NCBI GenBank assembly: GCA_049999805.1 | Contig: JBNGIO010005973.1 | Span: 128,877 to 177,153 of the forward strand | DNA length: 48,277 nucleotides | Direction: 5' to 3' | From: Folioceros fuciformis | Lineage: Eukaryota | In this document: piece after piece, positions 1 to 23,421 of the stretch | How the letters are laid out: every line of letters begins with the position of its first letter | Numbering within the stretch: the stretch's first letter is position 1 | Translations under genes and position numbers: made by a program | Notes under the pieces: model-generated | What the model was told of the DNA's origin: nothing | The model's database searches: none | Seen by the model: the letters and a program-made list of their open reading frames with translations, nothing else

Positions 1-2397
1 CAGATGGGACCGAGCGCAACAGAGCATGGGGCCGGTGTTATTCATCGGTCTATTGACCTGTTGTTCAATTTGAAGAAGGATACTCTTCACGATTGGGAGT
101 TCAAGATATCAGCAGAGATAATCGAGGTGCCTTTTGTCATTCATGTAATTTACCTGGGCATTGGACTTCAGCCTCGATAGTCAGAGCAATGCACTCATTT
201 ACGTGGTGTCTTCCAGATTTACAATGAGACCGTTCGTGATCTTTTGGCTGGACTGAATAAGAGCTTCTCAAGATATCCTTTTGCCGGTCTCGTCGTGTAG
301 AATGTGCATTGTTTCAGCTTCGCTATTGCTTCTACAATTTATGGTTGCGAAAACTTCTTGACAATTTTGCACAGTCGAGCAGAGGCGGTTGGATAACTCA
401 ATACGAGGATCAGATTCTGTGCAAGTGAAAGTTGACTCGACCCAGGAGGTCATTCAGCTCATGGAGATAGGTGCACGAAATCGTGCAGTAGGAGCGACCA
501 GTATGAATGAGCATAGCAGCAGATCCCATTGGTGGGTAGAGTAATTCTTGTCCCTTCTGTTGAAGACTCCAAACGTCCATTCAGAGTTGTGTGTTCTGAC
601 TCTCTACGCATTTTATGGCAGCATTGTTATTCTGAGAGTGGAGGGTGTGCAAAGACATAGTGGTGAGAAGATCTTCAGCTCTCTCAATCTGATAGATCTC
701 GCAGGGTCGGAGCGCGTGTCTCGCTCTGAAGCCACTGGTGATCGTCTGAAGTGAGTGGTTAACTGAGCCAACACCAGTGTTTTTTCTTTCTGTCGCGCTG
801 TGGGATGCCGCATCTGACGCTCAGGGCCCTCTGAATTGGTTAGAGAAACGCAGCATATCAACAAGTCTCTGGCGGCCTTAGGGGATGTGATGCAGGCCTT
901 GCTCGAGAAGCGATCCCACATCCCCTTCCGCAATTCCAAGCTCACACAACTGCTTCAAGATTCTTTAGGTGAGCTCCTTTCAACCCACTGCACTCAGGAT
1001 GGGAGCTTCTATGTTCAGAATGGCCAGTTAACCAGAAAATCGTTGACACAGGTGGCAATTCGAAAGTGGTCATGCTGGCACATGTCGCCCCTGAAAGAGA
1101 ATCTTTGAGTGAATCGATCAGTACGCTAAAGTTTGCTTCAAGGTTGCTCAACGTGGAGCTGGGCATGGCTGGGAAGAACAAAGGCGGTTTCCGACAGTTG
1201 CAGGCTATGGTAATATCGTCCGATCAGCCTGTTTCGCCATTTTCTCGCATGAGACTGGCTGTAAAAATCATGGAGCTTCAAATGGCATGGTAGGAGTTGC
1301 CGACTCTTGTTTTGTTTTTGACAATTTCGATTTGGCGCTAAGCAGGTCTCGGACAAAGATAAGGAGGTGGAGGACGTAAAGCGGCAGTTAGAGGAAAGTC
1401 AGAAACTGGCAGCTTACAAAATTGAAGGTTGTAAAAAGGAATTGTTGTCAAAGAAGGCTGAGGTACGTGCGCTAGAAATGAGCTTGATTCATCTAGTAGG
1501 ACACACTATGGAGTCATCGCCATATGATATTGTTTAATCATCTTTGCAGGCAAAGGCTCTTGCTGCGCGAGTGGCTATTCTTGAACAGAAAAATAGAGAT
1601 TTGGAACGTCGTCTGGAACAGGGTGCTGCGTTTGAGAGCACTGTGTCCAACTTGCAGCGCCAGTCTGCTTCTTTGAACTCATCTTTAAGCTCTGAGATCA
1701 TTCGAAGCGGTAAAGTCCAACACCCGGCAGCGAATGATCAGTATCATCGAAAGTTTTGAGACTCTCGTGGCTGAAAATCTTGAACTGTGGTTCTGTGCAG
1801 ACGCCGTTACGACAGGACGGTTGCCGCGATATCCAGAGAGTAGATCCTTGTCAAGAGCCCCCAGCACGTGTAGTACATTGGGAGACGCTAGTGAAGTTTC
1901 TAGCCCGGAGCTCCAACCGTCGAGAGAACCGGATCTTGGTCTAGCGGACAACTCGCTTGAGCCGCTTCCCCACTCCGAAACTGAATTGTAAGTGTCTCAG
2001 CCGTAAGTTCTAATCCTGCTCTGGTTGGGGTAAGGAAGAAAGTCGCTGAAAGCATTAGAATTGAACTCATTTATGCAGAGCGTGTGTCCTTCCACGAAAG
2101 TTACAGTCACGAGAACAACTGTCTAGATCGAAGGATTTCGCGCATTATGTACAACATGGTAGAAAGTTAAGGATACCAAGGTACGCAGTCCGTCACCGTC
2201 GAATTCCTAGTATCCAATTCTGCTAATGGCTGCCCTCGAAACCGTTTTGGCTTATGTGGCTAACTTTTGGACTTTTCCTGTCGTGCAGCGTTTCGTTGTC
2301 GATAAACGGGCACCCTGCGTTAAGAGAATCAATTACATCAACAGGAATGCTGCCCGTTGGCAGAGTGCAGAAATACACGTCGAAAAGGTGGATGTAA
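1..2397 (+). CDS. Kinesin-14 family motor protein, 5'-truncated by the window edge, multi-exon
   Basis: Spliced exons give the kinesin motifs [18 protein letters not shown] (switch I), [10 protein letters not shown] (switch II), [31 protein letters not shown] and STLKFASR, followed by a coiled-coil-like tail. The proposed last exon (2289-2397) ends ...SKRWM*. The 3' exon structure is tentative; an alternative stop lies at 1991. Confidence 0.85.
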
Positions 2398-3058: not shown

Positions 3059-4789
3059 CTAGCTCGTATCTCTTTGCTTTTTCTTCTTCTTCGCTCTCGT
3101 TCTCTTCCGCTTGGATTTCTGCTGCACATCTGAGGCGGAACTTCCTGCTGTACCAGATCGCCCCCTCCCACCCTCCAAGACTTCCCAACTGTTGCTGGAC
3201 GACGATTGATGTTTGACTCTGCTATTCATGTCTCCATTACTAACAGACGGGCGCTGTGTTCTCCTTTTCCCCGCATCTCCAATACTGGTGTTCCCTGACC
3301 TGCTTCCCCCACCGGTATTGACGAAAGATACTTGACCCCCTCTTGACCTAGGTGGTGGCATGAGGATACTGGCGGACCTTTGTCTCTGTAAGTGCCACAG
3401 TTACTATCAGGTGCCCACAGTTCCAGCTAATGTTTTTCATACCTTCATGGCAGCTTTAAACCTAAAGCCCTAAGTCCCAAAGCCTAAGTCCCTAAGCAAG
3501 AACATACCTGATCTTTCGAGGAGTGCTTGGATGACTTTCCACTATCCTCAAACACCCGTTGCCTTTTAGTGGCAGGCTGGTTCCTGGCCTCCCTCACCAG
3601 ACTAAGCGGTACAACCTCTCGGGATGTGTCATCCTTCTCCTCACCCACCCTTGAAGCCAAACACACGGTCACCAAGCATACCTGACCGAGAACCTGTAAA
3701 GCATCGAGCCCATTTTCACAAATGACTATCGACACAGGTCATGACACTTACCTTGGGCTCCTGTCTGTCCACTCATCATCTGCGTCTGCCTCATCGCTTG
3801 ACGATCCAGCAACGAAGAAATCATCCTCACTCATATCCGTTGCTCCATCATCTTCACTTCCAGTCTCTGGTGAGAGCCCACAAAGTTTCAAGTTGCAAAC
3901 GATCACCGACTACTTGACGAACAAAGAGGAATGAATTCCACTAGCCCTTACCCTCAAGGTCCACACCGGCAGCAGCAGCCGCAATACGGTTGGCTTTAAT
4001 CTTCTCCCTCAGCTCATTCCTCCGAGCCACAACCTGCTCATCATCGCCTGAAAAAAGGGACACATACTTCTCCGTCTTGGGGAAAAACTGCACAGAACCA
4101 ATCCGTCACATGAGCAGAAAAACTCATCTCCCCAACCGGAAACCACAATTTCTCATCCCATAGTCTCAGCTACGAACTTTACCCTAACATACTCCAAGTC
4201 CTCCTTCAAGTGAGCAAGCTCCTGGCTAATCTCAGCGGCCTTGTTATCGCCATCGTTCTCCGAACTAGCTCTTTGCTGTTTCTCGAGTCTCCGTATCCTT
4301 CTCTCTATCTTCCTCCTCTCTGCAAAGCCAGGGGTTTCAAATCAGCGGCTCCAAAATGCAGTCCTTTCACCACACAACCTCCAACCAAGCAGAAACCCTC
4401 ACCGAAAAATTTCACTTTCCGATACCGAAGAGCCATCTTCCTCTCAAGCTCACAGCGAGCATGTAAGTCCGCCTGCTTTTTCAGCTCGTCCAGTCTCTTC
4501 TGCTGCACATCCTTCATCTCCACGGACAGGGACTGCACTTCACCCCAGAGCTACTCAGTCCTGCCACTCACAAGAATCCGTAATTGGAAGAACCCCAAGA
4601 AAAGCGAACGCGGATCACCTTCTTCAGCAGCCTCTCAATTGAGCGAATTTGGTTCTTAATCGACACGATCTTGGTCTTCTTGCCAGGATCCTTGCGCACT
4701 CCCGTGACCCTGGACCGGGCCTTCCCCAACCCGGAAGCTACAGACGGTCGGCCCGCCACCCTCCTCTTCCCATAACCTCCGTGGGCCAT
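3059..4789 (-). CDS. EFG1: rRNA-processing protein EFG1-like, multi-exon
   Basis: N-terminus MAHGGYGKRRV...VSIKNQIRSIERLLKK, then LERKMALRYRKVKFF, an acidic SEDDFF segment and a basic C-terminus KSKRKRTRAKKKK. These match my recollection of plant Efg1-family proteins. GT-AG introns separate the ORF-track fragments. Confidence 0.75.
3452..3496 (+). repeat. Degenerate telomere-like (CCCTAAR) tandem array in an EFG1 intron
   Basis: Sequence ctttaaacctaaagccctaagtcccaaagcctaagtccctaag consists of imperfect 6-8 nt units resembling CCCTAAA. Confidence 0.4.
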
Positions 4790-5649: not shown

Positions 5650-6532
5650 ATGCCAAGAACGACAGATCAGGTGAGGAGTGGCTGTATAGGCATTGATAGC
5701 TGTGGGAAACAGGTGTGGTTGTGGCAGTGTGCAGGATGGGTCCGAGGGTGCACAGCGCACGAGCACGACATACGGAAGCAAAGCTTTGATTGCGGAATGA
5801 AGTTATGATGGGGTTCTGGAGCAAACGGTTCCACAGATTGTTTTGTTTCCGAGACATGGGGATTGTGGTGACTGTTGTTGCATGGTGCTGTAGGCGCCCG
5901 GCAAAGGGGATGGATTCAGAATCGGCCCTGAAGTTTCTGAGGTTATATTCCGCACTGATTGGGAGGTCTCGAGCCAGTGGTAGGACTGTTGGCACCTAAG
6001 CTTTGGTTTTTGTTGTGTTCTGTGTGGGTTGGTCCAGGAAGACGCAGAAATACAGCGTGACCGTGAAGCCCTAGCGAATGAGGCCATCGAGTGTGAATGC
6101 CTCGACGGGTTGAAATCTGGTCCTTGTGGGGAGGAGTTTAAAGAGGCCTTCCTTTGTTTCTTAAAGAGTGGTCACCCCGAGAAGGTCAGTGATCGTCTGC
6201 CTGGTTAACCTGGATCATGTCAGTGGCAGTTGATACGGATGGCTGCCTTCGTCTATTTGACTATAGTGGTCTTTCTTCATCTTCAGGGGACAGACTGCGT
6301 AGAGCCCTATTTTACAGCCTTGAAGAAGTGCATAAATCAGAATGAGAAAGCCCTCCTGGAACTTGCACCTGAAGACGACCCAGCGAGGTACACAGGGGCC
6401 CCTTTACCAGCCGTTGACCCTTCAAGCGTCAAGCTTCCTAAGTTTTACAACGATAAGCATTGGAAACCAGGGGATCCAGAGCCTATCAGCAAGGACGAGG
6501 ATGGGGACACGGAGATGTCAGATGCAGACTAG
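5650..6532 (+). CDS. MIA40: MIA40/CHCHD4-like intermembrane-space oxidoreductase, atypical; start tentative
   Basis: Exon ~6038-6184 reads EDAEIQRDREALANEAIECECLDGLKSGPCGEEFKEAFLCFLKSGHPEK. After intron 6185-6286, exon 6287-6532 reads GTDCVEPYFTALKKCINQN.... This follows the plant MIA40 pattern (CPC...GxCGxxFxEAFLCFLKS..EKGxDCV..F.AL..CI). A putative first exon MPRTTDQ lies at 5650-5670. Confidence 0.75.
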
Positions 6533-6775
6533 CCTCATGGCACCTTAAAGTGGTTTGTAGCGCACAAGGAGCCCATTCAACCTTTGAATTGGCTGCTTGG
6601 GGGGAATGCGTGGGACGCGCAAAATGAGAAACGTTTGTTGTACATGGAAGGCCTTGTGAGAAAATTGCCCGTCGGATACACATTTAGGTTTGTCATGTAC
6701 TGCAAGCAACCGAAGGGAAGGAAATGCAATCTGCATCTGCAGGAAGGGGGAAAGACAGCTCAACCCGGGTAGATC

Positions 6776-9700
6776 TCACATGAGGGTTGATCTCACAAGA
6801 CTCCCAGCGAGATCCTCAAAGCTCTTTGATAGCTGCACTTCGTCTATAGTCCGTTTGAAGGTGCCCCGCGCGGCACTAGCCATGTTCTCCAGAAGATTTG
6901 TGCTTCTGTCGTTACCAAACAGAATGGTGTGGAGGACCAGCTTTGGCATCACCGTCTTCATACTTTCTATGAGGGTGATTGGATCATGAGGTCCAAAATT
7001 TTCACCGTCACTGAGAAAGATGAGCACGGGACACTTTGGGGGATTGTCCTTCGCAGCCACCCGAAGCAGATAGTCAGCTTGATGCAGGCCGCTGCAATAG
7101 TCTGTCCAGCCACCTGCGTAATGAGAGAGGAGCTTTTCAACTGCAAACTTCTTGATAAGCTGCCTCTCCAATACAGTTGTACCAACACTATTGAACAGGA
7201 TGACGGAAACCAAGTCAGGCTCCCGAGTTGCCAGCTTTCCTCGACCTTTGACGAAGCGAACAATTGCTTCATAGACGCATCCCAGTCTATTGTTGTGTTT
7301 CTTAGCTATTTTGGAGAGAGTGGGTCGGATATCGTTGTCAGACATGGATGCCGACCTGTCTACGATGAAGATAATGTGGTAGGAAGTGTCCCTAGCATGG
7401 TTGCAGGAAAAGGAGTGACCATCATCTGTTACATATCCAGTGGTAGGCAGAGCAGAGGGTTCCGTGTTTGGAACAGGCTGATGCCACAGCTTCTCCCTGC
7501 AGTAGCTTTTGGCGCTATCGGAATCGTGGTCGTCAGACCTGCAGAAATGGTTGCAGAGCTCGAATTCTTTGCGATCCTCCTCTTTGCAAGGGTGCTTGAA
7601 CCTGATGTGGTTCCAGTACGCACTACATGTGAATTCATCCTTTGGCTCATCGAAGTTGGGGCCGAACTTCCTGGTTTCATGTCTTACACCCTTGAGGGTG
7701 GTCTCTCCACAGACCCCAGACGCCTCATGCCCCGGACACCTGACAAGATGAATGTGGCCCCTGCCCTGTGCCTTGCAGTACATGCTGCAGATCTCAGCCA
7801 TTCCAGACTCTCCCCATGCGTACCTGCGGCCCTGAATATCGATTGCCTCTGCCTCAGCCACAAAGCTAACACTACGCATGTTACCATGCACTGTATCGTG
7901 CAATCCTGCATGACCCATCGCAAGGTGGCAGAAGTACCCACAAGCTGGGCATCGTTCGCTACAGAAGTGCACAGCGTTCTCCTCTGTTGTGTGACGATGG
8001 GGCCCCTCGTGCCTGTCTGCGCCCGGGGGGATTGCAATGCAGCATCGCTCTCTCACACCGTTCTGCTCGGTAACATCTTCGTACTCGAAAACTGACCTCT
8101 TCCCTGCGAAGGTCATGGGGTGCTTGGCCTGTTCCGTCACAATCCGACATATCCCAGGAGCCTCACATTCAGCATGGCAGCTGTGCTCGTACCCACAGAT
8201 GTGCTTGCCATCAGAATGCAACTCGTGGAAATGATCCAAGGCGCCACACTTCCTGTTGCACCCTGGAAATGTACAGGTTAGAGGGCACGTCTGCTCACTG
8301 CATGCGTGCCTTTCATGGTGCCCGAGTTCCAGACGTAATGTACAGGAGTTCCTGCACGAGGACATAGAACATGTCCCTGCACACAAGTGGTGGTTGGTGT
8401 TGCACCTGTGATCGCCCGGATGGTGCAGATCCAGAGCACAAAACCTGTTACAGTTGGAGGACTTGTCAGAAAACGTGCATTCCTGACCACAGGCGTGATT
8501 CCGTTCCTTACAGTCATGCGGACCATCGTGGCCATTCAAGTCACCACACTCATTCGCCGAATTCTTGGTTGCTGGGTCCGCAGTACAGAAGGTGCAAGGA
8601 CTGGCACACCCATGAGAGCTTTCCGAACAATCGTGGCCATGCGGATGGCCTCTCTCCAGCACACAAAGCAGGAAGCAAGCTTGACACTTGTTGCTACACA
8701 GCGACAGCTTCTGTTTCAGGTCTGCCAGCATCGCAAGTGCTTGAGAACGGATCTTTTCAACCTCGCCATCACTTTGGAAATCCACTGTATTGCAGCGCAC
8801 CCACTCCGACACCCTCCATCGGCGTCTCTCTACTAAGGCAGCCAAGAAAGCTTCAAACTTGGCATGCCAGATACCATCATCCGTCCCCTTCCTCTGGACC
8901 ACCTCCACAAATGTAGCCTTCAAAGACCGCAGAACGCTACCAATCACAAGACTGTCCTGGGAGGGAAACAGCTGCAAGCCTGTGTCCCGCACTCCGAAGC
9001 TGTACTGGTCCAGCTGAAGAGCATCATCAGCAACGGGCTCCAAAGTGTCAAGATTCACCAGCTCATTGTCATGCTCTCCTTCTAGCTTACCAGAACAAAC
9101 AGCGGTGCTCAAGTCCTTCCTGAGAGCATCAAGCCGCAGGGCGACTCTTTTCGTGGAAATTGGAGACCAGTCCTTAGCACTGATCTGGGCTATCATCAGC
9201 TTTAAATCAGTTGCCAGGTTGCCTCCGTCCTTATATACTTCCTTCAACTCCTCTTCCACTGTCGCCGCTAGATCAACCACGCTCTTGTGAAATTCTGGTG
9301 CGTGGAAAGGATGCATCGTGGCTATGACTATGTTGCCTCCGTACATCTTCCTGAGAAAATTCTCTTCTGACCTGCGGCACATGTGCATCATTTTCTTATG
9401 AAATTCGTTCTCCAGGGCCTCCACATCTTCTGCATCCACGTCCTTGATAGCCAGGTAGAAGAGCCCTTGAAACAACCGAGGATCCTGCTTGACCAAGCTG
9501 ATGCTGTTTTGAAAACGTTGGAACACAGCATCGGTCTCCTTGTCCAGATTGAAATCCTGGCAGCCAGAAACGAAAAGCAAGAGTGCACAGCTCACATCAA
9601 TTGCAAGCAAACCAGAGGGCTACTCTCTCTCTACCGGAAGGGAGCATAGAACCAGAGGGCTGACCTTCTTGTTGAAAATTGTGATATTGCTCAATGCTGC

Positions 9701-12700
9701 ATTGAGAAGGGACAAGAGCATGTCCTCTTGCTCACTTCGCTCGAAGCTACCCAAGCCTTCAAAATCCAGAAGCACGTACAAGCACTTGTCAGTGACTCGT
9801 ACAGTCATCCAGACGCCATCTGTGCAACGCCCACCTGCCACATCCAGCAAGGAACCGCTCAGGTGATTGAGCAGGTAGGATTTCCCACTGCTCTGTTTTC
9901 CCATGGACGAGATGACCTTGACAGTGCCGTGCCAGTGAGCGAGGACAGCATCGTACAAGCCGAAGTGGATGCCGTTGGCTAGAGAGATTGCATCGGCGTA
10001 CTCCAAGTGTGAAGGAAGCTGGAGTCCATTGCTGAGCGGACGCAGGCTGTTGTTCTCTGCTCGTGCTATCTGTATTGGCACTAAGCAAATCAGCTCCCTG
10101 ATCCATGTCCCAACGCCTACTGGAGAACTATGCTTCCGCCCAAGACTCTTCCCATGAGATCGGCACCCAGCTAAGGTGTCTGACGTCAGGTGTATGTGCA
10201 GATTGGACAGATCTTTGCCTCTTTGTCCCAGCTTCTCCAGCGAACTCTCTACATAGCGAACGTACTGCTTCCCGAGTTCCTTGCTTGGGTCTGACAGTGA
10301 TCTTCCTCCTAGCACGATGTATACGTACACGTTTCTCATCGTATTCAACAGAGGTGGGCTGGTGGAGAACTTTTCGAAGATCATTGAAATATAATCCAGT
10401 GCCGGGGATGTCACGGATACAGGGCCTGGCTGGCTGGCTTCCTCTCCCATTCCCCTCTTCCCTTGCCTAGCCTCCTGCAGCTGAGAGCCTGGTAAATGTT
10501 GTGGAACTTCCACAAGGCTGTCTATCACTTTCGAGCAAATACCTCTGGAGGGTTTTGATGTGTCCAGAAGGACGAGGTGCATCTGGGACTCGAACTTGAT
10601 GACTGCAGCCTCCAGACTAGCAGGGTCTTCCACCGGAAAGTCTACCTGCACAGTTTTCAAATGGTCAATTTCGTCCTCCAGGTTGAATATTTGCACCTCG
10701 AGAAAAGCATGAAGCCTGTCATTCTGATCGTGCAGAAGCTCATCAGTTGCATGCCCTTGAGGCTCGTCTGCTCCCGAAGCACGAGATGTTGGAGACTGAG
10801 CCGAGCTCCCTCCTGCTGTGTAAATCGTGATGAGGCAGGACCCATCGCTGGAAACAAACACCTTGATGGGGGAGCCTGGAAGAGACGCAGTTCTTGGTTT
10901 GATCATACCAGACTGATTTATCTCAAAGACTCGAACTCTGCAATCAGTGTCAATAAGGAGCAGCTCCCTCTTCCCTGGAATGAAGAGGATGGCAGTTAAG
11001 TCTGCACTGCCGGAATAATCGAGCAGAGGCAAGTTGATATCGCAATATTCGATGCGATGTGTAGTTTCATCGTAGCGATAGATTCCCACTTTGCTCAACA
11101 GCCGATCATACAGAGCCATGTACTTGGAGACTTCGTCGAAGGCGAACAGATCAAAGCGTTTGAAGCTTCGGATGGGTTTAGCACTTGCCAGGTTTGAACC
11201 CACTTTGGGGCATAGGTACACCCTCAGCGAGGTGTTCTCAACATCGTGAACGAAGATGAACAACTCTCCAGACCTTAAAGCAATGACTCGATACAGCCTA
11301 TCTGCGAGCAAGTCCAGGTCCATCAGCTTGAGGTACGACGAAGAGCACTGTGGAACGATGACGTGGGCTGGATTCCGAACCAACTCATCAACATCCTGCT
11401 TCGTTGCTACAAGCTCGGCTACTTTCCATGTGACTATTGCTGGCTCTGTCACCTCTTGCGAAAACTGCAGTCCAACCCTTTCCTCCTTCAGCTCCACGTC
11501 CTCGAACCTCGTGTTTCCCCTGTTGGTGTTGGAGAACTGGCCCTCCGTCTTCCTGGAGAGAAGGGTACACCTGGAAATGGACAAGCTGGACAGCCAAGGC
11601 ATGCACGGGTTCTCGCTGGCTGGACTCCTATGTCTCTTCAGGAACTCGGACATTTCGGATGTGAATGACTGCTCAAGCACCCTGCAATGGCTTTCCAGCT
11701 GAAGACGTCTCTGTTCCCTCAGCAATGTGAGCACCTTCCTCTGCACCAGCCTCTCCACCTTGGAAGAAAGATTGTAACAGTCCTCTCGATAAACTGCCCT
11801 GCAAGCTTCCATCACTTCAGGGACATACGTAGCGCTAGGCAGTTGAAGTGACAAGAACTCCAAGGTGTACTTCCCAACCATCTCGCCAACCTTTTGGTTT
11901 GAAAACTTCGAACGAAAATAAGCGGAGGGGGAGGAAGACATCACAGCTTCCCTGACTGAGGCCAGTGTAGCCTGACAAACGTCGTCTCCATAGTCCTCAG
12001 GGCATTCACATACGCAGCTCAGCGCATCTGCCCTGAAACGCTGAGGCATGACACTTTCTTTCCCATACATGTCCATCCACCTCAACATACCTTCTGCTCC
12101 CTGGTCCATCACCTTAACTCGCACTGTACACGGCAATATGAGCAAGGGACAATCACCCTCGCCAACACACACCGTCCTTTCAATGCTCGCGGATGCTATA
12201 ATGGGTCCTTCAGCAGATTCACCTTCATTTGGGAGGAATTGCAGCTTGCAAAAATCTTTGTGTGGACCGCCTTGTTTCAACCTTGCAACAAACTCATGAG
12301 GAAACAATATAGGTCCAGCCCACTTTGAAGTCACGTTCTTCACACTCTCAACAACAGCTGGACCCACAATCAGCTCATTGGTAGCACTGTTTACAAGATG
12401 AAATTCCGAGCCCACGAACAGAAACGATATGTCGGTGCTTGCTTGAGTGACACCCATCCACATCCTGCAAAGCTCTAGTTCTACTTCCCCTAGCAGAGGC
12501 CTCCCAGCTTCAGCTGAGCCCAAAGGAGGGAGATCATCCATGTCACGATCTTCAGTTGCCAAATGCGTCTCCTCCCAGCTGAAGCAAATACTCCGGTACA
12601 GTTTCAGTGCCCTCCGGAACAGACCCTGCAGAACCTTTTCCTCATCTTTCAGACTGTCCTCCAGATGGTAAAATTTCTGCTTGTGCTCCTCTCTCCTTCG

Positions 12701-13675
12701 ATGGAAACTGTCGATGAGGGACACATAAGCTGTCCCCACTCTCTCTTTCAGCACTCCACATCGTAGCAGCGTCACAAAGTCGTCGTCGGGAAGCTCAGAA
12801 AAGCTAAGCGCGTGATGTTTGGACCATTCTTGAACAAGATGTGGGAGGTCCCGGGCCTTTACTGTCTTCTCTTGTGTGATGCGCCCCGTCTTCGGAGGAT
12901 GTACAGAAGGAAAGAGCAGGGCCAGCCGATGGTGACTTTCACAAAGCATGAACCGGAGCTCGCCACTCACAAACACATTCTGGTCCTGCACAACGCATGT
13001 GAACCAGTGGGTACCCCTGGACAAGCGGGGCATATCAATTTGGAAACCGGTGCGCAGCTGGATATCACTTCTCAGAGGTGTAGGAGGGATGATGATCTTC
13101 GTGGTCCTCCTACCACGCGCGGAAGCAGATTTGGAGTTGGAACTGGTTTGCTCAGAAGCAGTAGGTGCGGCCACGGTAAACTCATCCTCATCCTCCAGGC
13201 AAACATAGACTGTGTCGCACAGGTCCACAACATATCTGATAAAATTGCAGGATACATCCTTTCTGGAGGCTTCTCCCAACCTCTCGCCAGGATGCCAGTA
13301 GCAAATGTACAAGACATCTTCAGACAAGATGCCGTAAATCCCAGACTCCAGCTGAGTCGTCGCAGAAACTAGCTTCAGACCCACAAGAAGATTCATAACC
13401 ACGTTCTTGCTTCCATAGAGCCCAATCACATGTACCTTGCCCATATCTAGAAAGTCGAAATCTAAAACAATCTTTCCATGTTTCCAGTTTGCTGAGCCCG
13501 CAGCGGCCTCATTGCACAGACTGATCACGTTCTCTCTAACAAGCATCACCTTGTCCACAATTATCAAGTCCAGCTGATTTGGTTGCAAATGCACCAACTT
13601 GTGAAGTCTTGGCTCCGTCGTCCCACTCACACCCACCCGGTCCCGATGGTTTGCCAGGGGATCCGGACCGTCCAT
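6776..13675 (-). CDS. Giant VLIG/RHD3/GBP-superfamily GTPase with Cys/His-rich array and C-terminal vWA domain, paralog A, ~2263 aa, 2 coding exons (13675-9665, 9556-6776)
   Basis: Two long ORFs are joined by a phase-0 GT..AG intron at 9557-9664 (IFNKK|DFNLDK). GTPase motifs: G1 GKQSSGKS, G2 GRCT, G3 LLDFEG, G4-like LAIKDV. A ~430-aa Cys/His repeat region follows. The vWA MIDAS elements are IIFIVDRSASM, GGWTDY and LIFLSDG. Confidence 0.88.
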
Positions 13676-14398
13676 CCTGCTATCTGATGCTAGAAGCTAT
13701 AGTTGCAGCCTGGTTCTCTATGATTTGATGCCCTGCACAAATGAATCAGAGTGCGTCAGTTGGTACACGGTCGAAGCACGAAATCTTCGAACAAGTCCAA
13801 ATCCGAAACCGAAGGGGATTCGAATATCACCTGGGCTTCTCAACACTGCCCTCCACCCGCCTTGAAGAAGCTGTCAAGCCAGAGGAATAAACTATGTAAG
13901 ATCCTCTGGCCTGATTGCAAAAACTTCCCGCGTGGATGGAAGCTTCAGCTTTCTTTCCTTCCAAAAAGCATCCGAGCCCAACTTGATACTATGAGAAGGC
14001 AGCTTGCGTCGTTCGCAATCTAACAAGCCGCACGCAAAGTTAACATCGTTTTCATACACAACCCATGCCAATCAGCCGTCACCCACAAGCATTCCACGGT
14101 CCCACGTCACTCTGCACCACTTGAAACTTTGTCAACGCTTACCTTCGCTTCGAAGTGATGTTCGCACGATCCAGGAACCTCACGTTGCCCAACTCTTGGT
14201 ACCAACCGCTCGGGGATGATCATCTATAGGTGGAAACACAAAGGCGAATGGCCCTGGACTTGACGTGACAGCAACGTCAGTGCTCTTGGTTGCAACGAAC
14301 ACCCTCATCCCTCTGGACAAGAGCAAAGGTTACAGAACTTACAGAGTGGCGATTATAAGGAGCTAGAGGAGGTCGGGAGGGAGCAGGCAATTGTGGAG
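13676..14398. promoter_or_regulatory. Putative shared bidirectional promoter / 5'-UTR region of the two giant GTPase paralogs
   Basis: 723 bp separate the divergent ATGs (13675 minus, 14399 plus). It contains a candidate minus-strand 5'-UTR intron: donor AAG|GTAAGC at 14142, acceptor TGCAG at 13733. Confidence 0.45.
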
Positions 14399-17300
14399 AT
14401 GGGGGCTTTGGATCCCAGTGATGCATATCATGTGCTGGAGTTGTCCGAACAGTTTCTGCTTGGCAACGACAGAGAGTCTGAATGTGAGTCCAGATGTGGG
14501 ATCATTCCAAAGATGAGACTCGTGAATATGGAGGACTCATCTGAGCATCAAGACGAAAAGAAGGGGCAGAAGGAGGTACCTGCTCTGCATAAGCTGATAC
14601 ATCTCAAGGCTGATCAGCTGGATTTGAGCTTTGTGGAGAAGGTGGTCGTCTCCCAGAGTGGCATCATTGATTTGTGCAACCTGCTGTTGCCGGGGTCAGC
14701 CAATCGTATCAAGGATGAGATACGCTTGGATGTCAGGTCCTTGAATGACAACTTGAAGCCGTTGCATACGGTTGGCTTGTATGGAAGCAAAGACGTGATG
14801 GGGCTACTTCTCGAGAGGGCGGGGATCATGCGATTGGCTCAAGAGCAGCTGGATTGCATGGAATCAGGAGTCTATGGAATTCTCTCACACGACTTGATAT
14901 ACCTCTTCTACTGCCATCCTGGAAGGCGTATGGCAGAGGCCTCTAGAAAGGACGTCTCTTGCAACTTCATTCGCTACCTGATGGACTTGTGTGGAACCGT
15001 TTATGTGTGCCTAGATGCAGAGGACGTGAAGCCCCTCTTGCTGGTCGCAACCCCTGGGACTAAACCTAGATCCAGAGTGCCGGGAAGTCGAAGGAAGATG
15101 CTTGAAATCTCTCAGCCCAACACCTCCGAGAATGAGTTTGAGCTGCGTTGTGGATTCCATGTGTTTGCACCCGGCCTCTCTAATGACATTGATTCAAGTT
15201 CCGTGAAGTCCTCCGCCGTTTCCACATTTGATCTCACGTCCAGGTTCTCCGAAGGTCTGTATCGTTGTACTGTCCTCACACCCGTTGTTTGCCCGCCTAG
15301 TAAACGGTACCTAGAACATGAGAAGGATCTCGAGCAGCAGGAGCTACCAGCAATCGTGGAAGACTGGTCTGCAGCTTACAATCTTGATCTGAATACGCTC
15401 CCTGATAAGGATCTGCTGCTGCTACTGAAATGTGGAAAGTTGCAAGCCCACCAGGCATACTTGTCACTGCGTCATTCGTTTGAGCTCAGGATAGAGGACA
15501 ACAAGAACAAGTTCTACGGCCTGGAGGAAACTCTACGACAGGACCTCAAAAGCCTGCAGCTCATTTTCCAAGATATTCTCAAGGCTTACCGCAAAGTGGT
15601 GTACAGATCAGAGGAAGCAGTATTGGCAAGCAATGCAGATACTTGGAAGGGGAACCGGATGGGCGCATCTTCAAACCAATGTGCTGAGATGATTGCCCAG
15701 GAGAGGAAGCTCTGTGGGTTCTGGACTGGCCATGACAGCGCTCCGGGTAGTCCATCCCTGTTGTTTGTTGGTTCCGAGTTCATTTTTGTTGGGGACGACA
15801 ACAAAGTGATCCCCCTTTCAAGAGAACTTGGGTGCATGTTTGTGGTACAGAGCGGTAGGCTGTCAAAATCTGCGGCTGGACCATTCCACCTTCAGCAAGA
15901 ACTTGTTGCAAGGTCGGTTTCCACAGACGGCTCTTCGGCTTCGTTTTCTTTCACCGTTCACTCTCTTGCGGGTGACTGCCCCAAAGGTCCCATCGTGACC
16001 TCCCGGCGGGTCCAAGTCTCTGGTAGGTTTGCGTCACCAGCTCACAGGAACGAACAAGAATTCTCTTGTACTGTGCAGATCAAGTTGAAGGAAGCTTCGT
16101 CGGCGGGCATGCTGACCTGGATGCAGTCGTATGATAGAGCAGGGTCCATAGGATGCCAGGGAACAGCTACCCTGCCAAGTGCTGGCACACTATCTACCTC
16201 AGAATATCGAGATGTCTGTAGGAGTCATTCTGCAAAGGTCGAAAGCATGATAAAACGGGAGCTGTTGCCATTGGTGAGAGAATTCAGGCGCTTTGAGATA
16301 AATTCGCAGGGGAGCTTGCTCAACCAATTATTCCAGCAGGAGGAGTCTGTCTTCATGAACAACGTTAGGGAACAGTTCAGCAATGCAAGGCCAGATCAAC
16401 CCAGTCTGTCAATCATCGGATGTCACCTTGTCTCCAGCAGTACGACGCAGTCGTCGTCAGCAAAGGCGCCTCAAGAGGCTGATGACAAACTGGTCGTACG
16501 ATATGTCTCTGAAGAGATAGAGCAGGCACGAATTAGGTGGAAGGTTACTGAGCTTGCACCCATGAAGACGGATGTAGAGAGAGCAACCACGGACAGAACT
16601 CATGTCATCGTCCCTCGCTGTTCAGATGCTCACACGTTGATTGAGCTGGAGCAAAACGTGGAAAAGCTGACGAAGGTGGTGGCCATCAGGTCTGGAGAGA
16701 TGCTGGTGTTCGTGGAAAATGCTAGAGATGTATCCACAAGCGTGCACCTTTGCCCAAGACTTGGAACAGACGTGACGTCTGTAAGTCCTCTGAAGGTGTT
16801 TCCTAGGCTCTTTCTCCTCATAGCTGTTGATGAGACTTCCAAGTTTGTGGCGTTGTATGCACGAGAATACAGCAAAGTTAGCTTGTACAAGTTTGATGAG
16901 GCCTTTCGGAACATGGATAGAAGCAACACCGAGCTCCAGCTCACGGATTACATTACATGTGACTTGATTTCCATCATGTTCATACCTGGGAAGAGGGAAA
17001 TGGTGCTCATAGACAGCGAAAATCGAGTAAGCATCTTCCAGATAAGCCAAGGTATGATCAAGCCTCGTAGTGTTGTGTTGCCTGGACCTCCAGTAAAGGC
17101 CCATGTTACCACTGATGGATCCTGTCTCCTAGCTCTGTATGATGGAGGGGACTTTGATGAAGATGCTGGGACTCGTCCTGTTCAGGATTCTTCGACTAGC
17201 CTTCTGGAAATACACGTGTATGTGTTGGATGACGAACTGACACACCTGAAAACCGTTCAGGTGGACTCCAAAGAAATATGTGACGTCAAGGGAATGGAGT

Positions 17301-20300
17301 CCAGTATTGTGAGCTTCGAGACACAAATGCACCTCCTGGCTTTCAATGCTGGCATTACTGAGGAGGGAATCCGGTCCAAAATATTGAACATCACCACCAG
17401 TTCCGGGGGTTGCCAAGTGAGGGAGGTAAGGAGGGCGAAAACTGAGCCAGAGGATGCATCACAGAAGGCTACTACTTGTCCTGCCCTGGACTACGTGGGT
17501 CAGGTATTCGAGAAGTACGCAACCAGCCCACCTCTTCACGAAACCAAGAGGGATCTTACCATTCAGGTGGTTCTGGGAGCAGGAATTCAAGAGCAAGCCA
17601 AGCGGGAATGCATAACCTCCGTTCACAACTCGCTGGCATACATCGGAAAACAGCGGGGCAAGGATTTCTCCAACCTTGACATCGAGGTCCGCGCCGACGC
17701 GTTTGATGACTGCTTTGATGACGAAGACCAGCTTGAAGGAAGCAGAGACGATGGAAACCTCAGAGATGTGGGAGATTTCGTTCAGACCCTTGTCTGCTTG
17801 ATCCCAATACAGATAGCTCGTGCCGAGAAGAACACCTTGCGACCCTTGAGTGATGGCCTGCAGCTCCCGCCCGGCATCGACTACACCGATGCTGTGTCTC
17901 TGGCCACTATCATCCGATTCGGGTTCTACGACGCAGTGCTAGCACAGTGGCAGGGACCAATCAAAGTCATATCATCCATGGGAAAACAGAGCAGTGGAAA
18001 ATCTTACCTTCTCAACCATCTGAGCGGGTCCTTGCTTGATGTGGCTGGAGGACGTTGCACTGATGGTGTGTGGATGACCCTGAGGCCAACCCAAAACTGT
18101 ATGTATGTGCTGCTGGACTTCGAGGGCCTTGGAAGCTTCGAAAGGAGTGAACAGGAAGATCTCCTCCTTTCCATCCTGAATGCTGCTGTGAGCAACATCA
18201 CCATCTTTAACAAGAAAGTAAGTAGGCGGCTACATTTGTCAAAATAGTGGATGTTCTGACTGCATCTTGCTTGACTACTGGATTCCTGCAGCGGATGGAG
18301 GAGCTCTTGTGACAATTTGAAGCTTTCTAATCTGTGTTGACGTTGTTCTTGACCCAGGACTTCAACCTTGATAAGGAAACAGAGGCTGTGTTTCAAAGAT
18401 TTCAGAGTGGAGTACGCTTGGTGAAGAACGACACTAAGCTCTTCAAAGGCATGTTCTACCTGGCTATCAAGGATGTGGACCAGGACGACGTGGACGAGCT
18501 CACGGTCGAGTTTATTAAGAAAATCCGGCACATTTGCAGCAAGTCGGAGGAGAACTTCCTGGCCGTAATGTATGGAGGCCACGTTGAGATTGCAGCCATG
18601 CCTCCCTTCCAGAAACAAGAGTTTTATGATAGCATTTGTGAAATCCAAGAAACTGTGGAGGACCTGGTAGCAGTTCAACACAACGGGGGGAATCTAGCAA
18701 CCGACCTGAAACTGGTGATGGCTCAGCTCTGTGCCAAAGACTGGTCCCCTATTGACACAAAGCGTGCGGCCCTCAAGGTTGATCTGCTCCGCAAGCACTT
18801 ACGCACAGCCATCGCTCTTGGAAGACTACAGGGGAAGGACGGAGAATCACTGGTAGACTTCGACAGGCAGGAGGCCATACCCGACCTCCCGGTCCAGCTC
18901 CATGGCCAAAGCTTCGCAATACCAGACACGGACCTGGAGCTCTCTCCTTACCAGGACAGCCAGGTGGTTGGCAGCATTCTCGAGATGCTGAGGCTCAAGT
19001 TCGAGATTGTTTTCCCCAGGACAGGAACTGATGGCGAGGTTTGGCATTCCAACTTCGAGAAATTTCTGCTTGCTCTGGTATACAGACGCCGCATCAGAGT
19101 GATGGACTGGCTAGATCGCAATACATCCGAGTTCCAAAAGGATGCAGACGTGCAAAACCTCCGCATGAAGGGTGTTGCAATACTTGCAGAGTTGAAGCAA
19201 GCCCTAGCTCTTTGCAGCTGCAAATGCCAGATCTGCTTCCTTCGCTGTGTTCTTGAGAAGTCTCATCCCTCGGAACACACCTGCATGGGAGGCCATGTCT
19301 GCTCACAGATCTGCACCTACTGCAGCCAAGAGAGCTCGGGGGAACACAACGACTGCACAGATGTCAGCGGCCACGAAGGCCCGCATGACTGCAAGACTCG
19401 AAGCCATACCTGCGGGAAGCATTGCCACCTCTTCGAGATATCATCGAACTGCAATCAAGTCTGTGCTTTAAGGCCGAGTCATGCCGGGCACCATCTCTGC
19501 AACACCAGCCAACACATGTGCAACCAGATCTGCTCCCTGCCTTCCTGCAACAACTCCTGCAGCTATCCGTTCGATGCTCAGGGCCACGACAGGCATGCTT
19601 GCAACGAGTTCAGGTGCCTCAAGAACTGCTCCATGGAGAGCTGCAACAGGAAATGCGCATCCCCTGACCACTTCCACGCTCTGGGTAGCGACAAACATCT
19701 GTGCGGATACGAGCATGCCTGCAAAGGAGTGTGTGAGCACCCAGGGGCCTGCCAGATAGTCACCGAGCTCTCCAAGATTTCCAGGAAGTTCTCAGGCAGG
19801 AGAGGCCTCTTCGAGTGCGAGCATGCCTCGGAGAACAAGGGGATCAAGAAGAGCTGCAGCATCCCCATCCCCATCGGCCAGGAACGGCATCAAGGCCCCC
19901 ATGCTTGCCACCCTGAAGCCCTCCACTACTGCGAAGCTCGCTGCCAGGCCTGTGGCTACATCTGCAACCTTCAGTCAGGGCACGGAGGCCGGCACGACAC
20001 CACCCACGGCCACATGAGGGATGTCAAGTTTGTGTCAGAGCAGGAAGAGATCGACATTGTGGACAGGAAGTATGTGTGGGGAGAGTCGGGGATGGCAGAG
20101 ATGTGCATGCTGCACTGCAAGGCTCAGGGCAGAGGACACATCCATCTGATCAAGTGTGGAGCTTCCGAGCCTGGTGGAACCTGCGCCAAGGACTTGTACC
20201 CCGACGCCAGGCACGAGTCGAGGGAGTTTGGCCCAGACTTCAAGGTCCCCAAAGACGAGCTCACACATGCAGCATACTGGCGGCACTTGGGTTTCCGAGA

Positions 20301-21156
20301 CCCATGCCAGGAGGAAGACCAAGCGGAGTTCGCTCTCTGCAACCACTACTGCACGTCGGAGGACCATGAGCAGCCCGACGCCAAGAGATCCTTCTGCATC
20401 GAGAAACTCTGGCATGACCCTGTGCCTCCTCCTGCTGTTGGCGAGCTTGCCAAGTTCACAGGTTATGTCAGCAGAGACGGGCACCACTTCCGATGCAGGC
20501 ATGCCGCCAACTCCGCCAACCACATCATCTTCGTCATCGACAGGTCGGGCTCCATGTCCAAAGACGACATCAAGCCCTCCATGCGAGAATTCCGAAACCG
20601 GCATAACAACAGGTTGGGATGCGTATACGAAGCCATCTACAGGTTCTTAAGGTCTAGGCTCAAGGCCCAGCGTGTGACTTCCCATCAGGAAGATAAGGTT
20701 TCCATCATCCTGTTCTCGGAGCCGGGGACCGCAAAGATTGTGGAGAAGAGAAGGGAAATAGGCGAGATATCGGTGTACGGACTTATCAACCATTTCTGCA
20801 CTTTTATGGGAACTTTCTACGCCGATGGACTCGTGCTTGCGGCGGCTGTGATGAAGGAGGCTTTGGTATCCCAGTCCGACCGGGACAAAGAACCTGTGGT
20901 GATCTTCCTCAGCGACGGCGTGAACGACGATGGAAACACCCCGCTCCTCGTCATCGAGGAAATGCTACAGATTGATTCCAGGCTTGTGCTGCATACCATC
21001 CTGTTTGGGAAGAAGCGAGTGAGGGACACCACGTTGCAAGCCATGGCTGACAGCGGGAGAGGCCGCTTCCAAGTGAGCATCGACGAGGTGCAGCTGGCTA
21101 AGAGCTTCGAGGGCTTTGCAAACAGTCTTCGGGCCCCTGTCAACGCCCTAATGTAG
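14399..21156 (+). CDS. Giant VLIG/RHD3/GBP-superfamily GTPase with Cys/His-rich array and C-terminal vWA domain, paralog B, ~2205 aa (or ~2162 aa from ATG 14528), 2 coding exons (14399-18217, 18358-21156)
   Basis: A phase-0 intron at 18218-18357 (AAA|GTAAGT...CCCAG|GAC) joins IFNKK|DFNLDK. G1 GKQSSGKS is at 17981-18004, followed by GRCT, DFEG and LAIKDV. The Cys/His array spans ~19213-20502. The vWA domain has IIFVIDRSGSM...MGTFY...VIFLSDG. It is colinear with paralog A along the whole length. Confidence 0.88.
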
Positions 21157-21577
21157 AATTCTGTTCTCAGCTCATGACTTCTTCACTCTCACAGGGCCAG
21201 CCTTTCCACTGTCTTCTGCTCTTCTTCTCCCAGGTACATATGTTGTGTCCAGTAAAAGAGGAAGCGAGAGGAAAGCCTGGTCTTAAAGAACTTAAATCGC
21301 AAATGTGTACCAAACTCCAACGATTCTGTTCCCTATTTTTTCTTTTCAATTTTTCTCTTGTTTTCCACCAATTTAGATTTTCTTACGCACCTCGCCTAGT
21401 AAACTACATACTTCGTTACCGTTGAAGCACTTTTGAAAGGATCACGGATGGACATTCCAGAAGATTTGCGGAGACAAAACCTCCCGAATGCCCGAGCCCC
21501 GAGTCTCATCGTTCCGAACATTTGTGCCAAGACGTGCCCTCTTGCTTATCCGAGCATCCAAGCTCTTGCTTATCCTA

Positions 21578-21731: not shown

Positions 21732-22679
21732 GTTGAGATGCATTGCTGCATCATAGATTCTACAAATTCACTTTGCCTTGCTCATGCGGGATTTGCCTTA
21801 ACTAAGTGCTTATGATGTCACAAATCTCACAAACCTGCTTGCCTTTCTTATGCAGGATTTATTGGACCATTACTATGTAGATTGCATTGTGGTATAGACT
21901 TTGTATATGTGACTATGCTGCAGACTGCCATGCCTTCACGCAGACAGTAACGAGATGAAAGAATCAAAGGTAAACCAAAGTCACCTTCCTCCTATGCTTT
22001 GCTACTTCACTCTAACCAATTGCTATCTTACTCTATCAAACATTAGGTATCAAACCATGTTACTTTCCTTGAATTTATTCATCCTCTTCTTGTGTCTATT
22101 TTTTGTTGGCTACAATCAGGTCTGCCTAACATAGGAGTGGTCAGCATACACTCACAGGGGGAGTTGAATACCATAATTGGATCTTGAGACCCTGTATTGG
22201 CCAAGGAATGTATGGAGATCTATTCATATGTTTGACTCTAATGGTGAGGAGGAGGCCAGCATAAATAGAGAATGCCCTAGCCAAATAAGAGGAAGTGAAG
22301 AATTTAATTTCTTGTCAAACAACAATACATCCTATATGAGGGACTCATGTTCAAAGTTGAAGAGAAAGAGAGATGAATTTTCTCATGTGGATGACTCCAA
22401 GAATGAGCAAGAGCCAAGTAAAGTTGTAAGATCCTATGACCAAGAAAGAAGGCGAATTGGAGAACTAACAATAGTGTCCACAACAACACAAAAGATCTCG
22501 AGAAGTCAAGTGTAAGGACGCAGAAAGGCAACAATGAATCTAATCATATGCACAAATCTCATATTGAGGGAGAGGCAAGTAGAAAGGATGGATGCTATGA
22601 CACAAAAGGAGAGAGAAGAGAAGAACTCAACACATTGTCAAACTTTAAGTTCGGCCAAAATCTCTGCACTGACAATTCT

Positions 22680-23110
22680 ACAGATGAAGACCTCAATTGT
22701 GAAAATAGATATATGCCTATTGAAGATGGATTCCTCCCTTTTGAAGATGCAGACCTTAATTGCAAAGATGGATTCCTCCCTTCTGAAGATGAAGACCTTA
22801 AATGCGAAAATGGATTCTGCCCTTTTGAAAATGGAGACCTTAGTTGTGAAGATGGATTCCTCCCTTCTGAAGATGGAAACGTTAATTGTAGACATAGAGA
22901 CCTCAGGGTTGAAGATGGATACCTCCCTTTTGAAGATGGATACTTCCCTTGTGAAGATGCAGACCTCAATAGTGAAGATGGAAGCCTCCCATGTGAATAG
23001 GGAGCTTGAGGCCCCAAATGTGAAAGGAGAGACCTCTAGTGTAAAGATGGGGACCTCTATTATGAAGATGAGGACTATTGGTGTGGACATGGAGACCTCT
23101 AGTGCGAAGA
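22680..23110 (+). repeat. 21-bp minisatellite with an alternating 42-bp higher-order unit
   Basis: Units tgaagatggattcctcccttt and tgaagatg(c/g)agaccttaattg alternate and degenerate toward the 3' end. All four long ORFs here show heptapeptide periodicity (e.g. EDGFLPS/EDGDLSC; LKMDSSL). Confidence 0.9.
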
Positions 23111-23272
23111 GGAGATTGTTGGTGTGAACATGATGACTTCTGCCATGAACAGCAAGACGTTCCCTATAAAAAGGGAGACCTCTACTTCGAAGAGAAAGAC
23201 CTTCGCCATGAAAAGGGAGAGCTCCATTGTGAAGAAGGAGATCTCAACTCATTGTTAGGCTCTACTGTCATT

Positions 23273-23421
23273 AATAGATTCTCCACATCCAATTCCCAAG
23301 ATGAAGACCTTAGTTCATCAATAGATTGTAGCTTAGATGAAGAACTAATAGATTCTTCACATCCAATTCCCAAGATGGAGACCTCAGTTCATCAGTAGAT
23401 TGTAGCTTAGATGGAGAACTA
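23273..23421 (+). repeat. 74-bp tandem duplication
   Basis: aatagattct(c/t)cacatccaattcccaagatg(a/g)agacct(t/c)agttcatca(a/g)tagattgtagcttagatg(a/g)agaact begins at 23273 and again at 23347. Confidence 0.85.

Follow-up and report, generated by a model that had tools for sequence, protein, structure and literature searches.

The paired genes

This analysis concerns two divergently transcribed genes, A and B, in a 48,277-nt stretch of Folioceros fuciformis contig JBNGIO010005973.1; the whole of this stretch is called the window, and all coordinates are window positions. From the list of open reading frames (ORFs), their translations and the reading of the splice junctions, gene A (minus strand) encodes 2263 residues and gene B (plus strand) 2205 residues, each with a single intron (Table 1). 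A sequence-only reading of this DNA had proposed divergent paralogs of about 2200 residues with 723 bp between their ATGs, and this was confirmed by ORFs, translations and junction sequences. It had also called both frames intact; computed from the window, the spliced frames contained zero internal stops over the 2263 and 2205 codons. The description of the genes as open frames was right in this respect, but was corrected to one intron per gene, which cuts the GTPase domain.

A and B have the same domains in the same order, at 39–51% identity. The exon-1 products were 39% identical (521/1336) and the exon-2 products 51% (474/931) by BLASTP. The overall identity was 44%, with the lowest values (16–28%) at residues 376–750, in the stalk region, and the highest (77–88%) at residues 1201–1350. 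The shared domain order of the sequence-only reading stood, except that its beta-rich region is predicted to be a beta-propeller and its "unknown" N-terminus to be one half of a degenerate G fold. A and B were the only family copies detected in the 48-kb window by tblastn.

Table 1. Features of the gene A/B locus (X1 and X2 are the two contig sets described under Transcription and splicing; a slash marks the exon end).
Feature	Position	Strand	Remarks
Gene A exon 1	9665–13675	−	ATG at 13675; 1337 codons; donor AAG/GTCAGC; junction 9555>9664 in X1 and X2 contigs
N-terminal half of predicted degenerate GBP/atlastin-like G fold	13181–13618	−	Gene A residues 20–165; AF2 model
Helical stalk (helices 311–364, 619–683) and small beta subdomain	11591–12856	−	Gene A residues 274–695; AF2 model
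Predicted beta-propeller	10517–11590	−	Gene A residues 696–1053; Foldseek, VIA
C-terminal half of predicted degenerate G fold (a3-b5-a4-b6-a5)	10076–10423	−	Gene A residues 1085–1200
Gene A P-loop GKQSSGKS	9878–9901	−	Residues 1259–1266; domain from about 1215 across the intron to about 1470
Gene A intron	9557–9664	−	108 nt, GT..AG; inside the GTPase domain; removed in X1 and X2 contigs
Gene A exon 2	6776–9556	−	926 codons and stop
Cys/His array, gene A	7403–8698	−	Exon-2 residues 287–718, about 430 residues
vWA domain, gene A	6788–7393	−	DxSxS at 7346–7360; Pfam, Foldseek, VIA, conservation
Inter-ATG region	13676–14398		723 bp
Gene B exon 1	14399–18217	+	ATG at 14399; 1273 codons; P-loop at 17981–18004
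Gene B intron	18218–18357	+	140 nt, GT..AG; codon position same as gene A intron
Gene B exon 2	18358–21156	+	932 codons and stop
Cys/His array, gene B	about 19213–20496	+	Exon 2
vWA domain, gene B	about 20506–21132	+	MIDAS DRSGS at 20539–20553

The GTPase domain with conserved motifs

The nucleotide-binding motifs of the GTPase domain are kept in both proteins. G1, GKQSSGKS, is found at residue 1259 of A and 1195 of B and satisfies the pattern GxxxxGK[ST]; G3 is DFEG (A 1304, B 1240) and G4 is AIKD, of the (R/K)D type (A 1373, B 1309). The K and D of AIKD (K38 and D39 of exon 2) were at least 90% conserved in an alignment of 27 rows. A G4 of this type in place of NKxD is a mark of the GBP/atlastin/RHD3/VLIG group. 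The string NKKD, which runs across the splice site, is located on the strand after helix 2 and was read as coincidental. With the DxSxS motif of the vWA domain (see below), GKQSSGKS, DFEG and AIKD are present in A and B alike, in agreement with the earlier statement that both copies retain the GTPase motifs and the metal-ion-dependent adhesion site (MIDAS).

Three Pfam models, URGCP_GTPase, GBP and RHD3_GTPase, matched about the last 85 residues of exon 1 in both genes. GBP (PF02263) was passed marginally with the exon-1 half alone (23.0 bits for A and 24.5 bits for B, cut-off 21.1) and gave 21.2–24.0 bits in four of four full-length homologs. The scores for URGCP_GTPase (PF25683) were 38.3 bits (A, E 8.9e-10) and 35.6 bits (B, E 5.9e-9), and 31.5–37.6 bits in the same number of full-length homologs, all below the cut-off of 55; those for RHD3_GTPase (PF05879) were 23.9 (A), 24.2 (B) and, in full-length homologs, 24.4–29.8 bits, below the cut-off of 42.4. 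Since the full-length homologs also fall below the URGCP and RHD3 cut-offs, the low scores of A and B are not due to the intron. When a profile of 27 family members was compared with the PDB, GBP1, GBP2 and GBP5 were found at E values of 4.9e-8 to 6.1e-6. The high identity of the G domain is a property of the whole family and is not particular to the A/B pair. The assignment to the GBP/atlastin/RHD3/VLIG group was borne out by the motifs, the Pfam GBP pass and the profile matches in the PDB; judged by these sequence features, the G domain belongs to the GBP/RHD3/VLIG-type large GTPases of the dynamin superfamily.

A predicted split G fold, stalk and propeller in the N-terminal half

Residues 1–1200 of gene A were folded with AF2 from a 65-row alignment (mean predicted local distance difference test score, pLDDT, of 79.8), and 48,161 chains were compared with the model by VIA-align. 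The G-type matches were Sey1p (Z 15.4, 222 residues aligned), GBP1 (Z 14.4, 205), SMG8-SMG9 (5nkk_B, Z 14.2, 204), atlastin-1 (Z 14.2, 216), atlastin-3 (Z 13.9, 209) and GBP2 (Z 13.9, 218), and all six begin at model residues 19–23 and end at residue 1200. The secondary structure of residues 80–160 is b1-a1-b2-b3-a2-b4 and that of residues 1091–1198 is a3-b5-a4-b6-a5, so that in the AF2 model about 930 residues lie between the two pieces of the fold, i.e. between strand 4 and helix 3. Both A and B have GLYGSK at the P-loop position, where the family consensus is G(F/L)YGxK, and the DxxG position reads (F/Y)WHxG; the fold is therefore called degenerate and lacks a Walker A motif. The model thus predicts that a degenerate G fold, in two pieces, immediately precedes the functional G domain.

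With ESMFold2, residues 20–165 combined with residues 1085–1200 scored 0.53 versus 0.00 for the best of three controls, with a contact agreement of at least 53% and a partner pLDDT of at least 51. The support from this is weak. Of 78 solved complexes 51 attained the mark used, as did 2 of 108 mismatched pairs; those that attained it with a score of 0.60 or under were just 5 of the 78 complexes and every one of the 4 mismatches (of 180) that passed. Feature matches in the Protein Atlas for residues 1–380 included Smg8_Smg9 (0.89) and RHD3, GBP and atlastin (0.87), all below 0.9 and to be read as leads only; the top matches for this segment were hypothetical proteins of Ascomycota (0.92).

The matches listed by Foldseek against the PDB were almost all beta-propeller proteins of the WD40/NHL type (best E 6.5e-07), and VIA-align gave Z 17.2 with the NHL domain of Brat (1q7f_A; root mean square deviation (rmsd) 4.1, 259 residues aligned, model range 205..1059). 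The pLDDT was mostly 90–96 over residues 730–950. Because the propeller ranges of VIA-align begin near residue 205, the strands at residues 205–273 (window 12857–13063) are predicted to complete the propeller, which would have six or seven blades.

The Cys/His array and the vWA domain

Residues 280–725 of gene A exon 2 contain 85 Cys/His, of which 69 are kept as Cys/His in at least 90% of 27 aligned rows, and the array is predicted to be of a zinc-binding type. It gave no significant match in Pfam, no sequence match in the PDB and no usable match in the Protein Atlas; a phmmer search of the PDB with exon 2 returned nothing better than E 0.27. Pfam scans of the Cys/His segments and of two N-terminal segments yielded sub-threshold noise only (zn-ribbon_14, E 0.0071; DUF7050, E 0.43; DUF6980, E 0.16). 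The H-x-C-x3-C spacing of the array is reminiscent of the NF-X1 finger type; the NF-X1-type zinc finger model (PF01422) matched neither of the two Cys/His segments (A and B) up to E 10.

The exon-2 product was folded with 27 rows (pLDDT 77.8). The model contains a vWA fold at residues 722–923, matched by VIA-align to 4fx5_A (Z 23.1, rmsd 1.9, 174 residues aligned) and by Foldseek at E 1e-10. TFIIH p44 vWA domains were among the top vWA structure matches. In Pfam, the vWA domain of gene B passes VWA_2 (30.6, cut-off 27) and VWA (28.2, cut-off 23.8), and that of gene A remains below these cut-offs (20.7 and 21.2). The family profile found vWA domains of the ITIH type in the PDB (E 2.8e-10). The DxSxS motif is DRSAS in A and DRSGS in B, and D733, S735, S737, T818 and D850 (exon-2 numbering) of the MIDAS were at least 90% conserved in the 27 rows; T818 and D850 are probable ligands, assigned by position.

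Transcription and splicing

Contigs of two runs, X1 and X2, were compared with the window. X1 contigs were at least 99% identical to it; X2 represents a relative that is about 91% identical, with 8.2–9.6% nucleotide differences over four coding blocks. A junction was taken as bridged with 31 letters on the short side. The intron of gene A was spliced out in contigs of X1 and X2 (short side 255 letters in each) and that of gene B in X2 (short side 255 letters); one X1 contig also skips the gene B intron, with a short side of 29 letters, below the rule of 31. The contigs without introns suggest that X1 and X2 are cDNA. One X2 contig of 8035 nt joins positions 13197–13822, the 5' coding end of gene A, to 14378–21201, which is all of gene B in spliced form; 14378–18215 is covered by an X2 contig unspliced. 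In the inter-ATG region 556 letters of X2 replace 555 bp of the window and could not be aligned at the threshold of 90/100 letters. The 8035-nt contig shows that the head-to-head arrangement and its spacing exist in the relative. The genes are thus intact and transcribed, and their layout is kept in one relative, as the X1 and X2 contigs confirm for the earlier reading.

Further features of transcription were seen between and within the genes. The X2 contig with spliced gene B covers the intergenic region from end to end and continues into the initial 480 nt of gene A's coding sequence (13197–14398), which indicates that the 5' ends of the A and B units overlap or abut in the relative; the X2 assembly is unstranded. 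In X1, window 14174–17675 contains minus-strand joints of the form CT..AC: 14252>14342 (side 79), 14455>14580 (side 114), and 16508>16634, 16823>16986 and 17203>17675 (sides 27–30). Spliced RNA antisense to gene B exon 1 therefore crosses the start codon of B in the direction of gene A, and could be either a distinct antisense transcript or an extended leader of gene A. A palindromic promoter between A and B was considered and rejected, as the only inverted similarity lies in homologous coding sequence.

A family outside the flowering plants

Hits were collected in three word-seeded searches (31, 8 and 10 rows), some proteins appearing in several lists. The named members are from gymnosperms (Cryptomeria, Ginkgo, Taxus), ferns (Ceratopteris, Adiantum), the lycophyte Selaginella, the moss Ceratodon and the liverworts Riccia and Calypogeia, and, outside plants, from dinoflagellates (Durusdinium, Effrenium) and oomycetes (Achlya, Saprolegnia). 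No flowering-plant protein was named in the 49 hit rows. The best identity to the window proteins was only 41–51%, so the source species is not in the protein database searched. The C-terminal half is 45–51% identical from bryophytes to gymnosperms. A single Cryptomeria sequence of 862.7 Mb accounts for 13 of the 31 hits of the first search, and the locus tags of six of these fall between SUGI_0690960 and SUGI_0691520. The N-terminal 1200 residues have few relatives, 118 at E <= 1e-3 in a set of 1.84 billion representatives. When bacterial and archaeal genomes were scanned with one family pattern, the pattern matched 12 times but none of the matches was a relative, which speaks only weakly for absence.

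Database labels of the members read hypothetical, "VWFA domain-containing" or "VLIG-type G domain-containing". No publication on the family or its architecture was found in the literature searched by title, abstract and locus tag; supplements lay outside that search and might list the genes. Within these bounds, the earlier statement that no characterised plant protein of this architecture is known was upheld, and the architecture is different from that of every characterised giant GTPase that could be compared. Passages of an eLife 2020 paper (PMC7159879) deal with prokaryotic MoxR-vWA and GTPase-centric conflict systems and not with this architecture.

Some relatives differ at the N-terminus. 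An unnamed relative of 2417 residues (P0075) has extra SAM-like and C2 domains at residues 52–471. In the Achlya protein P0034, residues 68–188 form a P-loop kinase-like N-terminus (PRK, E 0.0024, below the cut-off); this P-loop was considered as evidence on the N-terminal domain of the plant proteins and rejected, the N-terminus being a different, kinase-like one. Many representatives of 350–600 residues (P0041, P0042, P0044, P0045 and others) match only residues 16–375 of gene A and are without a Pfam domain, as seen in five of the seven relatives scanned; either they stem from fragmentary gene models or the N-terminal module may also occur on its own.

Origin and age of the pair

Two trees were made by quick searches without bootstrap. 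Tree 1 comprised A, B and 21 homologs chosen for length and taxonomic spread (1869 columns); tree 2, of the exon-2 region, comprised A, B, 21 database proteins and 10 metagenome-derived rows (917 columns). Most Cryptomeria paralogs were omitted from both, and dinoflagellates and Saprolegnia from tree 2 as well. In both trees A and B form one lineage-specific clade (SH-aLRT 99, the approximate likelihood ratio test), which is nested in a bryophyte-lycophyte group with support of 98 and 97. A protein of 927 residues (P0153) groups with B in tree 2 (support 80). The A–B path length in this tree was 1.10 versus 1.15 for both A–moss and A–liverwort, and a path about as long as those to moss and liverwort indicates that the duplication is old. 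In the exon-2 region, 215 columns reach a conservation of 85% or more among the other 25 rows; A and B depart from it at 11 columns each.

The arrangement of other family members was assessed at 26 loci from a metagenome scan. With nine family queries in tblastn, an inverted family copy was seen at 0/26 loci, with 0/666 high-scoring segment pairs on the opposite strand. In three distinct genes with a visible N-terminus (L004, L007/L008 and L014), no divergent copy was seen in the 1.5–3.6 kb upstream. Locus L003 (1581–12787) holds two family copies head to tail, about 32% identical to gene A, and both group with L004 in one clade of tree 2. The intron after the codon of gene A residue 1337 (NKK/DF, in the G domain) has the same position in L014 (8118/8310) and L015 (8889/9081), and L006–L008 show no break there. 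Conserved head-to-head synteny, proposed as a check on the earlier reading, was thus seen in the one relative of about 91% identity but at none of the metagenome loci. The layout looks like a property of this lineage and not of the family, the sample being small and made up of metagenome loci.

Neighbouring sequence

A Pfam scan of 20 flanking ORFs gave only a SAP18-like match and a sub-threshold thaumatin match, and no link to the pair was seen among them. The ORF for SAP18 (Sin3-associated p18) lies at 25685–26128 on the minus strand (E 2.4e-10, 41.2 bits, cut-off 27), and the weak thaumatin-family match at 4114–4659 on the plus strand (E 0.005; 17 bits, where the cut-off is 27.4). A plus-strand neighbour at 5668–6776, with introns 5668>5892, 5939>6036 and 6182>6285, is merged with the 3' part of gene A in one X1 contig, which suggests convergent, overlapping 3' ends. 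Right of B lies a further plus-strand gene with introns 21643>21854 and 21967>22118. The G+C content was 0.33–0.37 at 22001–24000 and 44001–48000 versus about 0.50 elsewhere in the window.

Interpretation of the locus

Overall, the locus is probably an old head-to-head (inverted) duplication of one gene from an uncharacterised family of giant dynamin-superfamily GTPases. The proteins would have six parts: a degenerate G fold of the GBP/atlastin type that lacks a Walker A motif; some 930 residues, helical stalk and propeller, inserted in that fold between strand 4 and helix 3; a GBP/RHD3/VLIG-type GTPase with intact G1, G3 and (R/K)D, directly following the degenerate fold; a helical region; a zinc-type Cys/His array of about 430 residues; and a C-terminal vWA domain with a complete MIDAS. 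Several points weigh against this picture. The degenerate G fold is seen in predicted structure only, and hhalign gave no signal between the family G domain and the N-terminal piece of that fold, its C-terminal piece or both joined (probabilities 0.3, 0.23 and 0.20). The VIA-align output gives no more of the aligned range than its first and last residue. The packing of residues 1085–1200 might change in the presence of the real G domain, as the model ends at residue 1200. For the exon-2 model, the Foldseek and VIA-align lists were filled by vWA matches and bear on the vWA fold, not on that of the array. The RNA origin of runs X1 and X2 is guessed. Finally, part of the X1 cover over gene B exon 1 consists of contigs spliced on the opposite strand, so that full-length sense mRNA of B in its own species is seen only around and downstream of the intron.

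The last point, together with a single-base X2 indel at 11065 among those listed inside gene A, might be taken to mean that one copy is a decaying duplicate or that the reading of long ORFs produced artefactual gene models. This is hardly credible and is largely refuted by the open spliced frames, by the spliced contigs that confirm both introns, by the lengths of the X2 indels inside gene A (five of the six listed are multiples of three; there are 17 further ones) and by the residues conserved in the family, which A and B keep equally. Very doubtful, too, is the proposal of the sequence-only reading that the pair resembles head-to-head NLR (nucleotide-binding, leucine-rich-repeat) sensor/helper pairs, i.e. 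that A and B form an obligate, co-regulated, heterodimeric immune module with a shared bidirectional promoter. Divergent orientation at 723 bp would fit such a module, as would two intact, transcribed genes whose layout recurs in the relative together with its spacing (555 versus 556 letters). The pair is old (path 1.10), so that both copies and their adjacency have long been retained. With 77–88% identity between the two proteins, the first half of the G domain would allow a mixed G–G interface, so that A and B could co-assemble; that identity is, however, high family-wide. The remaining evidence speaks against the analogy: A and B share one clade (SH-aLRT 99) instead of falling into two partner clades, they are conserved to the same degree (11 deviations each), no domain has been gained or lost by either copy, the nucleotide-binding motifs are kept in both, and no inverted copy was seen at the 26 metagenome loci, including L004, L007/L008 and L014. 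The minus-strand spliced contigs in gene B suggest overlapping transcription units and not one compact shared promoter. There is no sign of one copy being a specialised sensor and the other a helper; positive support for an obligate sensor/helper pair goes no further than adjacency and long retention.

On the model of GBP, atlastin and GVIN1, the G domains would pair on binding GTP and build up larger assemblies; the target may be chosen by the propeller together with the variable stalk, and the MIDAS vWA and zinc array may dock partner proteins. The patchy, expansion-prone distribution makes surveillance or defence the most likely biological context, a tentative assignment made by analogy. 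The distribution, from bryophytes to conifers with clustered conifer copies, no flowering-plant hit and patchy occurrence in dinoflagellates and oomycetes, is the usual pattern of conflict or surveillance genes. The main rival is a constitutive role in cell biology, for example in the tethering and fusion of membranes or organelles, known from RHD3, Sey1 and atlastin, or in the assembly and quality control of large complexes, in the manner of the SMG8-SMG9 pair of G folds or of vWA/zinc proteins such as TFIIH p44, with A and B as subfunctionalised paralogs; we consider it somewhat unlikely. It is favoured by the RHD3_GTPase matches (below the cut-off), by Sey1p as the best G-type structural match and SMG8-SMG9 among the six, by TFIIH p44 among the top vWA matches, by transcripts in ordinary transcriptome-like assemblies of two species, and by the 45–51% identity of the C-terminal half from bryophytes to gymnosperms, which is high for a gene in host-pathogen conflict. 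However, a core housekeeping factor is rarely lost in the way that the 49 hit rows without a named flowering-plant protein imply, and copy number varies strongly, with local clusters (13 of 31 hits on one Cryptomeria sequence; the tandem at L003). A transmembrane hairpin or membrane anchor was not noticed, though no dedicated test was made.

A more specific and quite improbable proposal, again by analogy, is that the family is the counterpart, outside flowering plants, of the giant immune GTPases of the GBP/GVIN type. A microbial or damage-derived ligand would be sensed by the propeller and the variable stalk, and this would undo an intramolecular pairing of the degenerate with the functional G domain; polymerisation driven by GTP would follow and expose the zinc array and the MIDAS vWA, which would recruit effectors. 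The long-retained A/B pair, with its overlapping divergent transcripts, would form mixed assemblies, and the family would have been lost in flowering plants. If the anatomy holds, a large and apparently unstudied GTPase family exists in land plants other than flowering plants; it would be a candidate cell-autonomous immune system of plants, unrelated to NLRs and testable in transformable bryophytes, and a G fold split by a 930-residue insert would be an unusual structural solution. For characterised proteins of the dynamin superfamily, the literature searched does not describe the union of a GTPase of the GBP/VLIG type with a propeller, a zinc-binding array of very large size and a vWA with MIDAS.

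Comparison with known systems

The plant NLR pairs RPS4/RRS1, RGA4/RGA5 and Pik-1/Pik-2 are arranged head to head and consist of specialised partners, with distinct clades and an integrated domain or degenerate motifs. The A/B pair shares with them divergent transcription from a short intergenic region and large proteins that contain an NTPase. It differs in the class of NTPase, in being made up of sister paralogs with equal architecture and conservation and no integrated extra domain, and in that the pairing was not seen in the other family members examined.

SMG8-SMG9 likewise brings a functional and a degenerate G fold together (5nkk_B and the Protein Atlas lead described above). There the two folds are on separate chains, acting in mRNA surveillance, whereas in A and B they would lie on one chain; no sequence relation was detected. 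RHD3, Sey1 and atlastin are linked to A and B by the RHD3_GTPase matches and by Sey1p as best G-type structural match, but A, B and their homologs score 23.9–29.8 bits versus the cut-off of 42.4, and these proteins are membrane-anchored fusogens of the endoplasmic reticulum with 700–800 residues. GBP1, GBP2 and GBP5 and the GBP-like proteins of Arabidopsis resemble A and B in the marginal pass of Pfam GBP, and the first three are found by the family profile; the (R/K)D-type G4 is presumably common to GBPs and A/B. GBPs have about 600 residues (large GTPase (LG) domain and helical domain) and no propeller, zinc array or vWA, and A and B lack a C-terminal CaaX box.

A further comparison is with the very large inducible GTPases (VLIG) of vertebrates. 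A and B match GVIN1/VLIG-1 and URGCP in their giant size, about 2,000 residues upwards, and presumably in being cytosolic, and URGCP_GTPase is the best-scoring Pfam model on their G domain, although below its gathering cut-off. The interferon regulation of VLIG has no plant counterpart. In passages of a bioRxiv preprint on GVIN1 (10.1101/2025.03.24.645074), no propeller, Cys/His array or vWA is described. According to these passages, GVIN1 has two predicted LG domains, by which it is predicted to dimerise, and it coats bacteria. The first G fold of A and B differs in being degenerate and split by a large insert; nevertheless, the two LG domains of GVIN1 as described there parallel the degenerate and the functional G fold predicted in A and B.

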